From IMG/VR virus record IMGVR_UViG_2711768065_000005: a stretch of 38,499 bases of DNA; one strand, 5' to 3'. Position numbers and translations under genes: made by a program. Positions 34,389 to 36,860 of this stretch are shown one piece after another (the stretch's first letter is position 1; every line of letters begins with the position of its first letter). This DNA is from a virus (taxonomy: Duplodnaviria > Heunggongvirae > Uroviricota > Caudoviricetes). The notes under the pieces were generated by a model. The model was not told the origin of the DNA and made no database searches. It was given only the letters and a program-made list of their open reading frames with translations.

Positions 34389-36860
34389 ATGAGTAAAGTC
34401 TTTATTTGCGCCGCTATTCCTGACGAACTGGCAACAAGGGAAGAAGGCGCTGTGGCTGTAGCCACAGCCATTGAAGCTGGCGACGAACGCCGTGCTCGAG
34501 CAAAATTTCACTGGCAATTCCTGGAACATTATCCGGCTGCTCAGGACTGCGCTTATAAATTTATTGTCTGCGAGGATAAACCTGGCATACCCCGCCCTGC
34601 CCTCGATTCATGGGATGCTGAATATATGCAGGAAAACCGCTGGGATGAGGAGTCTGCTTCTTTTGTCCCGGTTGAGACTGAATCCGATCCGATGAACGTC
34701 ACTTTTGACAAGCTGGCCCCTGAAGTACAGAACGCTGTCATGGTTAAGTTCGACACATGTGAAAACATCACCGTTGATATGGTTATTAGCGCACAGGAAT
34801 TGTTGCAGGAAGACATGGCAACATTCGACGGACATATCGTTGAAGCGTTGATGAAAATGCCAGAAGTTAACGCCATGTATCCGGAGCTTAAGTTGCACGC
34901 CATTGGGTGGGTTAAGCATAAATGTATTCCTGGTGCTAAATGGCCCGAAATTCAGGCAGAGATGCGCATCTGGAAAAAACGTCGCGAAGGTGAACGCAAG
35001 GAAACCGGAAAATACACGTCTGTTGTTGATCTCGCCCGCGCCAGAGCCAATCAACAGTACACTGAAAATTCAACAGGAAAAATCAGCCCGGTCATTGCTG
35101 CCATTCATCGCGAATACAAGCAGACATGGAAAACACTGGATGACGAACTGGCCTACGCTCTCTGGCCTGGTGATGTGGATGCCGGAAACATTGACGGCAG
35201 CATCCATCGCTGGGCAAAAAATGAAGTTATCGATAACGACCGCGAAGACTGGAAGCGTATCTCGGCATCAATGCGCAAACAGCCTGATGCCCTTCGCTAC
35301 GACCGCCAAACTATTTTTGGCCTTGTCCGTGAACGTCCGATCGACATTCACAAAGATCCCGTAGCACTGAACAAATATATCTGCGAATACCTGACGACAA
35401 AGGGCGTGTTTGAGAATGAAGAAACAGACCTGGGCACTGTTGATGTTCTCCAGTCATCAGAAACACAAACTGATGCAGTGGAAACTGAGGTATCTGATAT
35501 CCCAAAAAATGAAACCGCGCCGGAAGCTGAACCATCTGTAGAGCGTGAGGGGCCGTTCTATTTCCTCTTCGCAGATAAGGACGGAGAAAAATACGGTCGC
35601 GCAAACAAACTTTCTGGTCTGGATAAGGCACTGGCTGCTGGCGCCACTGAAATCACAAAAGAAGAATATTTTGCCCGAAAAAATGGCACATACACGGGCT
35701 TACCGCAAAATGTAGATACCGCTGAAGATTCAGAACAACCAGAGCCGATAAAAGTTACCGCTGACGAAGTAAACAAAATTATGCAGGCAGCCAATATCAT
35801 CCAGCCTGACGCCGATAAGTTGCTTGCTGCATCACGTGGTGAATTTGTTGAAGGGATTAGTGACCCGAATGATCCGAAATGGGTTAAGGGGATCCAGACC
35901 CGCGATTCTGTGAACCAGAACCAGCATGAATCGGAACGGAACTACCAAAAAGCGGAACAAAACAGCCCAAATGCGTTACAAAACGAGCCAGAAACGAAAC
36001 AGCCTGAATCAGTGGCGCAACAGGAAGTGGAAAAAGTCTGCACCGCCTGCGGTCAGACCGGCGGCGGCAACTGCCCTGATTGTGGCGCGGTAATGGGCGA
36101 CGCAACATACCAGGAAACATTCGATGAAGAGTATCAGGTTGAAGTTCAGGAAGATGATCCGGAGAAAATGGAAGGCGCTGAACATCCACACAAGGAGAAC
36201 ACTGGCGGCAATCAGCATCACGATAGCGATAATGAAACTGGCGAGACGGCAGATCACTCAATTAAGGTGAACGGTCATCACGAAATCACATCCACCAGCA
36301 GGACGTGTGACCATCTAATGATCGACCTTGAAACCATGGGAAAAAATCCTGATGCCCCGATCATCTCAATAGGTGCAATATTTTTCGATCCGCAAACCGG
36401 AGATATGGGACCGGAATTTATTAAGACTATCGATCTGGAAACTGCTGGCGGAGTCATTGATCGGGACACCATTAAATGGTGGTTTAAGCAATCACGCGAA
36501 GCGCAATCTGCCATTATGACCGATGAAATCCCGTTAGATGATGCACTGTTACAATTGCGGGAATTTATCGACGAAAACTCCGGTGAATTTTTTGTTCAGG
36601 TCTGGGGAAATGGAGCCAACTTCGACAACACGATTTTGCGCCGTTCATACGAACGGCAGGGGATCCCCTGCCCGTGGCGTTACTACAACGATCGCGATGT
36701 ACGCACAATCGTTGAGCTGGGGAAAGCCATAGACTTCGATGCCAGAACGGCTATTCCATTCGAAGGTGAGCGCCATAATGCACTTGATGACGCCCGTTAC
36801 CAGGCAAAATACGTTTCAGTTATCTGGCAAAAACTGATCCCGAGTCAGGCTGATTCTTAA
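34389..36860 (+). CDS. Large protein with C-terminal DnaQ-like DEDDh 3'-5' exonuclease domain (intact YdfE-position gene)
   Basis: 823 aa; C-terminal motifs Exo I IDLETMG, Exo II WGNGANFD, Exo III HNALDDARY; acidic central linker; Cys cluster CTACGQTGGGNCPDCG. Confidence 0.8.
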   Translation: MSKVFICAAIPDELATREEGAVAVATAIEAGDERRARAKFHWQFLEHYPAAQDCAYKFIVCEDKPGIPRPALDSWDAEYMQENRWDEESASFVPVETESDPMNVTFDKLAPEVQNAVMVKFDTCENITVDMVISAQELLQEDMATFDGHIVEALMKMPEVNAMYPELKLHAIGWVKHKCIPGAKWPEIQAEMRIWKKRREGERKETGKYTSVVDLARARANQQYTENSTGKISPVIAAIHREYKQTWKTLDDELAYALWPGDVDAGNIDGSIHRWAKNEVIDNDREDWKRISASMRKQPDALRYDRQTIFGLVRERPIDIHKDPVALNKYICEYLTTKGVFENEETDLGTVDVLQSSETQTDAVETEVSDIPKNETAPEAEPSVEREGPFYFLFADKDGEKYGRANKLSGLDKALAAGATEITKEEYFARKNGTYTGLPQNVDTAEDSEQPEPIKVTADEVNKIMQAANIIQPDADKLLAASRGEFVEGISDPNDPKWVKGIQTRDSVNQNQHESERNYQKAEQNSPNALQNEPETKQPESVAQQEVEKVCTACGQTGGGNCPDCGAVMGDATYQETFDEEYQVEVQEDDPEKMEGAEHPHKENTGGNQHHDSDNETGETADHSIKVNGHHEITSTSRTCDHLMIDLETMGKNPDAPIISIGAIFFDPQTGDMGPEFIKTIDLETAGGVIDRDTIKWWFKQSREAQSAIMTDEIPLDDALLQLREFIDENSGEFFVQVWGNGANFDNTILRRSYERQGIPCPWRYYNDRDVRTIVELGKAIDFDARTAIPFEGERHNALDDARYQAKYVSVIWQKLIPSQADS

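Follow-up and report, generated by a model that had tools for sequence, protein, structure and literature searches.

The virus sequence analysed here (IMG/VR record IMGVR_UViG_2711768065_000005; 38,499 nucleotides, which as a whole we call the window) carries on its plus strand a gene for an 823-residue protein in which a predicted DEDDh 3′-5′ exonuclease domain lies at the end of a long non-catalytic region. We find it most fitting to view this protein as a scaffold of the RecE family in which the nuclease has been swapped, because its middle 360 residues correspond to RecE's own non-catalytic region. While we regard this description at the level of domains as nearly certain, what the protein does is a separate question. 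Judging from sequence comparisons, it may be a scaffold-tethered 3′-5′ DNA exonuclease that is made early in the lytic cycle and occupies the position of RecE, an interpretation for and against which we see the chances as evenly balanced.

A DexA-like exonuclease domain behind a RecE-type scaffold

The C-terminal 180 residues are, by sequence and by structural modelling, a DEDDh domain that resembles DexA and has its catalytic residues complete, and are thus predicted to be a 3′-5′ exonuclease. Pfam family PF16473 (Rv2179c-like) matches residues 642-813 with 224.2 bits against a cutoff of 27 (E 1e-66; model positions 2-177 of 177), and the only other Pfam match at the C-terminus is RNase_T; the PD-(D/E)XK nuclease domain (DUF3799) was not found there in the Pfam search. 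The three DnaQ motifs that had been read from the sequence at the outset are present in the expected order (DLE, NGANFD, HNALDDA), and the catalytic residues D646, E648, D746, H796 and D801 align with D7, E9, D119, H186 and D191 of phage T4 DexA, with 95-100 of 100 aligned sequences retaining them. A phmmer search of the sequences in the PDB returned T4 DexA as the sole match (8KEL, E 1e-6). DexA was also the best match in Foldseek, with a structural alignment over 176 residues as compared to 144 for Rv2179c, and an AlphaFold2 (AF2) model made from a 35-sequence alignment gave residues 641-820 with high confidence. The assignment to the DEDDh exonucleases, which the original prediction had made from the motifs, is thus borne out by the domain search, by the alignment of all five catalytic residues to DexA and by the fold.

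T4 DexA (exonuclease A; 8KEL/8KEN) is hence the closest solved structure, and like the window protein it is phage-encoded and has the DEDDh fold with the five catalytic residues. However, the two are only 21-28% identical, and DexA is a stand-alone protein of 227 residues with extra loops that comes from a virulent phage with modified DNA, whereas the window protein carries an N-terminal scaffold of 640 residues. At individual positions, DexA W152 corresponds to Y766, which is aromatic but not a tryptophan, S87 corresponds to P715, and the equivalent of D169 falls within the sequence AIDFD, where its placement is ambiguous. The tetramer-forming aspartate D90 aligns with D718, and this site is an aspartate in 73 of 100 aligned sequences. 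The namesake of PF16473, the 3′-5′ exoribonuclease Rv2179c of M. tuberculosis (4HEC), belongs to the same Pfam family and has the same fold, but is a stand-alone bacterial RNase.

The region ahead of the exonuclease had originally been considered unrelated to RecE (exodeoxyribonuclease VIII of the Rac prophage of K-12), and here the comparison gave the opposite result. BLASTP aligned residues 262-625 to RecE 278-591 (E 2e-61, 39% identity overall), and the NCBIfam RecE equivalog NF007259 matched residues 246-625 at model positions 271-602 with an E-value of 2e-83, though its score of 281 bits lies far under the cutoff of 1269, such that the protein fails as a full-length match. Between residues 462 and 636, identity to RecE reaches 61-92% in most blocks of 25 residues (one block has 36%). 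This stretch takes in the shared motif LLAASRGEFV(E/D)GISDPNDPKWVKG and a Cys4 zinc ribbon that K-12 RecE has in almost exactly the same form and that more distant relatives lack, and at the DNA level, nucleotides 1425-1867 of the gene are 78% identical to recE. The similarity ends about 15 codons ahead of the DEDDh domain, just before the point where the RecE nuclease domain starts, and BLASTP found none beyond RecE residue 591.

The likeness to RecE goes further than the aligned segment. Both are large acidic prophage proteins whose genes share a map position, with kil-type genes on one side and xis/int on the other, and both have the catalytic domain at the C-terminus, behind a disordered acidic linker. 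They differ in that RecE has a PD-(D/E)XK 5′-3′ nuclease (DUF3799) in place of the DEDDh 3′-5′ exonuclease, in that the RecE head belongs to PF06630 and the head of the window protein to YdfE_N/YdfE_C, and in that the window gene has no recT downstream. A comparison of the two heads by hhalign gave a probability of 29.5% (E 5.7e-4, 168 collinear columns), which is suggestive, but which we did not accept as a relationship. A 2023 review lists the N-terminal region of RecE as a domain of unknown function (PMC11611040).

The original prediction had also assumed a single N-terminal domain. The AF2 model shows instead that residues 1-640 are a non-catalytic scaffold composed of a globular head, a helical domain and a mini-domain, joined by acidic disordered linkers that contain a peptide motif and the zinc ribbon. 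The acidic character that had been noted for this region is evident from its composition (122 D/E versus 70 K/R), and the two CxxC pairs ahead of the exonuclease are indeed there, as C551/C554 and C562/C565. AF2 confidence at the zinc ribbon is low because the alignment has no depth at this point. The head bears the precomputed Pfam labels YdfE_N (PF27430) and YdfE_C (PF27432) on proteins that are 100% identical to ours over residues 1-300 (P0002); our own Pfam search of residues 1-640 gave no match, using a Pfam version that lacks the YdfE_N and YdfE_C models. A profile of the scaffold, when searched against PDB sequences, hit only a designed TIM barrel (E 0.002), which we take to be chance.

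The mini-domain has the motif EREGPFYF..GRANK..EITKEEYFARKNGT (also GPFYF..GRANK..EEYxARKNG), and it is conserved in relatives with DEDDh, PD-(D/E)XK and Rad52-like C-termini, while K-12 RecE lacks it. The peptide motif at residues 477-499, which sits in a variable acidic linker and is common to RecE and distant relatives, may be a docking motif. The mini-domain and this peptide (ASRGEFVEGISDPNDPKWV) stand out as two small conserved elements within fast-evolving acidic linkers, and relatives have a third motif, G(G/A)(K/R)FSI(D/E)GL. All three look like docking elements.

Selection on the gene was evaluated by region, using the ratio of nonsynonymous to synonymous substitution rates (dN/dS) between the window gene and the alleles of phages Evi and mEp460_ev081. 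This ratio is about 0.06 in the head, 0.06 in the helical domain, 0.03-0.05 in the mini-domain and 0.16-0.17 in the DEDDh domain (comparisons with Evi), as opposed to 0.44-0.69 in the linkers. The folded domains are thus under strong purifying selection and the linkers are relaxed. This shows that selection maintains the gene, and the pattern agrees independently with the predicted domain boundaries. Between Evi and the window, the DEDDh domain is 72% identical but the head 97%, and modules are thus shuffled within the gene by recombination.

Table 1. Positions in the window of the exonuclease gene, its parts and its neighbours (pLDDT, predicted local distance difference test)
Feature	Residues	Window positions	Strand	Basis or remark
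Whole open reading frame	1-823	34389..36860	+	823 codons, ATG start
Globular head: alpha/beta subdomain (1-95) and helical subdomain (105-205)	1-207	34389..35009	+	AF2 pLDDT mostly >90
Helical domain, homologous to RecE ~278-350	245-340	35121..35408	+	AF2 pLDDT 92-98; BLASTP, alignment
Segment homologous to RecE non-catalytic region (RecE 278-591)	262-625	35172..36263	+	BLASTP, NCBIfam
Mini-domain, beta-beta-alpha-beta-alpha	385-435	35541..35693	+	AF2 pLDDT 88-95; alignment
Weaker helices	456-520		+	AF2 medium confidence
Peptide motif LLAASRGEFVEGISDPNDPKWVK	477-499	35817..35885	+	Alignments
Disordered stretch holding the zinc ribbon	524-637		+	AF2 low confidence
Cys4 zinc-ribbon-like motif CTAC-x7-CPDC	C551, C554, C562, C565	36039..36083	+	Sequence, alignments
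Predicted DEDDh (DnaQ-fold) 3′-5′ exonuclease domain	641-820	36309..36848	+	Pfam Rv2179c-like; closest solved structure T4 DexA
Exo I motif DLE (D646, E648)	646-648	36324..36332	+	Motif, DexA alignment
Exo II motif NGANFD (catalytic D746)	741-746	36609..36626	+	Motif, DexA alignment
Exo III motif HNALDDA (H796, D801)	796-802	36774..36794	+	Motif, DexA alignment
DicF small RNA		33693..33744	+	Rfam RF00039, 72.5 bits
dicB		33919-34107	+	Same operon, upstream
ydfD		34104-34295	+	Same operon, immediately upstream
Excisionase		36933-37184	+	Pfam DUF1233; directly downstream
Tyrosine integrase		37204-38499	+	Pfam Arm-DNA-bind_2 / Phage_integrase

Relatives with other C-terminal domains

The head defines a small family. 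An exhaustive HMMER search with residues 1-260 over 1.84 billion representative proteins found only 96 proteins, and the diversity described below came from this search, since a word-indexed homologue search using an alignment of distant heads returned E. coli fragments only. In long family members, the head is located at or near the N-terminus of a protein of 600-980 residues, with the helical domain usually coming next, while in one of them (P0240), a RecE-type segment stands ahead of the YdfE head.

What follows at the C-terminus varies. The DEDDh domain is found on a YdfE head in the window protein and in P0239, where the next gene is xis/int, and on a RecE-type head (PF06630) in P0329 and in part in P0240, where it is the integrase gene. 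A RecE-type PD-(D/E)XK domain (DUF3799) is present in P0272, P0303 and P0307, and the gene for P0272 has a RecT gene next to it (Pfam E 2e-36). About 15 representatives, corresponding to PHROG 2489, carry a domain of some 300 residues without Pfam match and have Sipho_Gp157 as next gene. A fourth version is PHROG 26058, with P0243 and P0313 (also P0320 and P0321). The proteins of PHROG 26058 combine the same head and RecE-like middle with another C-terminal region, some 200-300 residues long, that matches neither the DEDDh nor the PD-(D/E)XK nor the Rad52-like domain.

PHROG 2489 deserves a closer look. Its members, for instance the "putative exonuclease" of Pectobacterium phage ZF40 or P0247, resemble the window protein in the YdfE head, the helical domain, the mini-domain and the genome position. 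However, their C-terminal region consists of a Rad52-fold annealing domain with a coiled coil behind it, and the "exonuclease" label is probably wrong for them, because this domain is not a nuclease. That these proteins appear to be Rad52-like annealases is a practical by-product of the comparison.

As far as sequence comparison goes, these relationships show that the scaffold has its place among proteins for DNA recombination or DNA-end processing, and in the literature searched, we found no earlier description of a scaffold with interchangeable effectors. Across the loci examined, the gene always sits just upstream of xis/int. Proteins with the DEDDh domain are directly followed by xis/int or by integrase alone, without an annealase, in the window, in NZ_CP032515, in phages Tritos and Evi, and at three further loci (L016, L017, L018). 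The DEDDh domain also occurs by itself: just ahead of xis/int, Salmonella prophages encode stand-alone proteins of some 190 residues with 57-60% identity. In one such prophage, which has YfdP and DUF2303 genes, the stand-alone homologue of 189 residues comes right after a DndB-like gene and before xis/int (L008, 3743-5570). In E. coli, some entries that appear to be stand-alone DEDDh proteins may be pieces of a split gene, since in one assembly (L011, 737-3127) dicB is followed by three consecutive open reading frames of 456, 157 and 183 residues, the third of which (P0185) is the DEDDh domain, and which together have approximately the length of the full gene.

The gene in its prophage and operon

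The open reading frame was found exactly where it had been predicted. Its first 256 residues are 100% identical to the K-12 pseudogene ydfE, as far as the IS2 insertion of ydfE, and by this identity the window gene is the intact homologue of ydfE, a connection that the original prediction had proposed to examine. The coding sequence annotated in NZ_CP032515 is 100% identical in nucleotide sequence to the window gene, which is widespread: of 5426 complete E. coli genomes, 4800 had a Megablast match, and in 3537 the coverage was at least 80%. Among deposited phage genomes, it is present in those of Tritos, HannyBb, PhiR42_1, mEp460_ev081 and Evi as well as the PPompW group, and it is intact in those of Tritos, mEp460_ev081, Evi and HannyBb. 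A DEDDh nuclease at this position, which had been called atypical, is thus unusual with respect to lambda itself, but not among E. coli prophages.

The protein is not new to the databases. It is catalogued as RefSeq WP_000048333.1 ("exonuclease"), as PHROG 2082 and under the Pfam families YdfE_N, YdfE_C and Rv2179c-like, and it has been listed as a DexA homologue; further labels on database copies are "exodeoxyribonuclease VIII" and "Exodeoxyribonuclease encoded by cryptic prophage CP-933P".

The window represents an almost complete lambdoid prophage of the Qin/mEp460 type, inserted beside rspB. The exonuclease gene is preceded, on its own strand, by a DicA-like repressor gene, small ydfA-like genes, DicF, dicB and ydfD, and it is the last large one of the DicA-repressed, pL-like dicBF operon. 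Being downstream of dicB/ydfD and upstream of xis/int, it does occupy what in lambda is the recombination region, as had been stated. A scan for promoters and terminators gave no more sites than shuffled sequence, with none convincing between dicB/ydfD and the gene, such that nothing argues for a separate transcription unit. In K-12, the dicBF operon has a pL-like promoter that is repressed by DicA in lysogens, derepression is brought about by the antirepressor Rem or, in a minority of cells, arises spontaneously, and only the products DicF, DicB and YdfD have been characterised (PMC10448788). Given the repression by DicA, the exonuclease gene would be a gene of the lytic cycle and not constitutive in lysogens. 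Neither Pfam nor PHROG searches revealed an annealing-protein family among the open reading frames of the early region of the window, and no such gene lies between the exonuclease gene and xis/int. Without an annealing partner, the DEDDh version does not form a classical exonuclease/annealase recombinase (SynExo).

Some further features of the window may be mentioned. The dicBF module directly upstream of the exonuclease gene is intact (33693-34295, plus strand). At 27896-29683 (plus strand), flanked by the late-regulation region and the replication genes, there is a gene for a protein of 595 residues with DUF7380 and DUF4209 that matches the PADLOC candidate family PDC-S39 (E 8e-103) and looks like prophage-carried defence cargo. 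A DUF977 protein at 29902-30303 (minus strand) matches PHROG 142, "Ren-like exclusion protein" (E 2e-44), and is possibly encoded by an exclusion gene. From approximately 19000 to 24000, the G+C content is 0.35-0.40, as compared to 0.45-0.60 elsewhere, which suggests foreign cargo or lysis-region genes.

Possible roles of the exonuclease

How might such a protein act? After induction or infection, the nuclease would be tethered by the scaffold, either to a partner or to DNA ends, and the DEDDh domain would use two-metal-ion hydrolysis to remove nucleotides from 3′-OH ends of DNA, be they on single strands or on 3′ tails. The protein would thereby fill the position of RecE as a DNA-end-processing enzyme of opposite polarity that works without a dedicated annealing protein, and 3′ tails would be trimmed or destroyed rather than created. 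In favor of DNA as the substrate, both the sole sequence match in the PDB and the best Foldseek match are DexA, a DNA exonuclease. The role at the RecE position is what we infer from this architecture and setting.

Several points weigh against this interpretation. Annealases and RecA need 3′ tails, but a 3′-5′ exonuclease yields 5′ overhangs, which single-strand annealing cannot use, and there is no partner annealase; the anatomy hence does not support a direct role in recombination. The census of effectors against neighbouring genes covers one to four loci per class, the tethering role of the scaffold is a conjecture, and the literature searched did not yield a functional study of ydfE or the window protein. 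We thus do not claim that the protein promotes recombination, because it would destroy 3′ tails and because the DEDDh variants examined have no annealase. By analogy to the host ExoI (sbcB), which restrains or redirects recombination, it may equally do the same.

The most developed alternative is superinfection exclusion, in which the protein would protect the lysogen by selectively degrading the 5-hydroxymethylcytosine (5hmC) DNA of incoming T-even phages. Kang et al. 2025 solved DexA and reported that a plasmid-borne E. coli homologue, EcD ("HREX"), cleaves 5hmC DNA, not unmodified DNA, and protects against T4, and their supplementary list of bacterial DexA homologues includes WP_000048333.1, i.e., the window protein (PMC12153337). 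EcD thus belongs to the same set of homologues, with conserved catalytic residues, and DexA is the closest solved structure. It would also fit that DicB from the same operon blocks ManXYZ-dependent phages (PMC6832061), and that a subpopulation of cells turns the operon on spontaneously; however, being a lytic operon under repressor control, it is off in most lysogens (PMC10448788). Furthermore, EcD is a short stand-alone protein whose primer-derived termini (MIDTET at the start, TIPETY at the end) had no match among the 345 homologues that we collected. W152 and D169 of DexA have been implicated in 5hmC recognition, and loss of D90 has been linked to 5hmC selectivity (PMC12153337). In the window protein, the first of these residues is replaced by Y766, the equivalent of the second is ambiguous, and D90 is kept as D718, whereas EcD has an alanine there. 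A search of PADLOC-DB v2 found no defence family for the protein at E <= 0.01, and the sharing of the scaffold with RecE and Rad52-like proteins also speaks against exclusion. The published analysis does not contain the word "prophage" and makes no mention of the long N-terminal extension (PMC12153337). Taken together, we consider exclusion unlikely. Counter-defence or host takeover, which we rate marginally lower still, would mean that host nucleic acids with free 3′ ends are destroyed, be it the multicopy single-stranded DNA of retrons, the cDNA of defence reverse transcriptases, short oligonucleotide signals or, as with T4 DexA, chromosome fragments for salvage. Scavenging of host DNA is one known role of the DNA exonuclease DexA (PMC12153337). 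Early lytic expression from a pL-like operon and the lack of an annealing partner would be in keeping with such a purely degradative role. But we know of no temperate lambdoid phage that degrades the host chromosome, and this scenario leaves the 640-residue scaffold shared with recombination proteins unexplained.

That the substrate is RNA, which would be trimmed by the enzyme in the manner of Rv2179c or RNase T, is brought to mind by the name of the Pfam family and the RNase_T match, and the co-transcribed DicF would be one conceivable target next to host RNAs. Yet DexA is nearer than Rv2179c both by sequence, where phmmer finds DexA only, and by the extent of the structural match, the processing of DicF has been attributed to RNase III and RNase E (PMC10448788), and all other effectors found on the scaffold act on DNA, which makes this option improbable. 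The same holds to a far greater degree for the notion that the gene is a decaying remnant without function. In K-12, the gene has been cut short by IS2 and is a pseudogene, many of the entries in databases are fragmentary, and a split into three is apparent at one locus or more. However, the intact reading frame of 823 residues occurs in thousands of genomes and in deposited phages, one of which, mEp460_evo81, is described as a functional temperate phage (PMC10448788), and the catalytic residues are conserved. The pseudogene reading was therefore rejected on account of this intactness and of dN/dS values of 0.03-0.17 in the folded domains.

With the tethered exonuclease at the RecE position as the preferred reading, the comparison bears on several neighbouring questions. 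At least some of the listed "bacterial DexA homologues" are domains of prophage proteins encoded in lytic operons and not host genes, which provides context for the defence model. The DEDDh version of the scaffold, moreover, has a match in almost nine out of every ten complete E. coli genomes and lies within the well-studied dicBF operon. In a wider and more speculative sense, which we offer tentatively and think less likely to hold than not, the N-terminal region of RecE may be one version of a portable phage scaffold, built from head, helical domain, mini-domain and linker motifs, that docks interchangeable DNA-end effectors on a common target; among the relatives, such effectors are a 5′-3′ nuclease, a 3′-5′ nuclease and a Rad52-like annealase. 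The DEDDh version, the commonest in E. coli and never accompanied by an annealase, might then represent a new strategy in which 3′ tails are erased in order to steer or block host recombination or defence. The role of the first ~600 residues of RecE has been unclear since its discovery, and the occurrence of three effectors on one scaffold gives a concrete route to study it.

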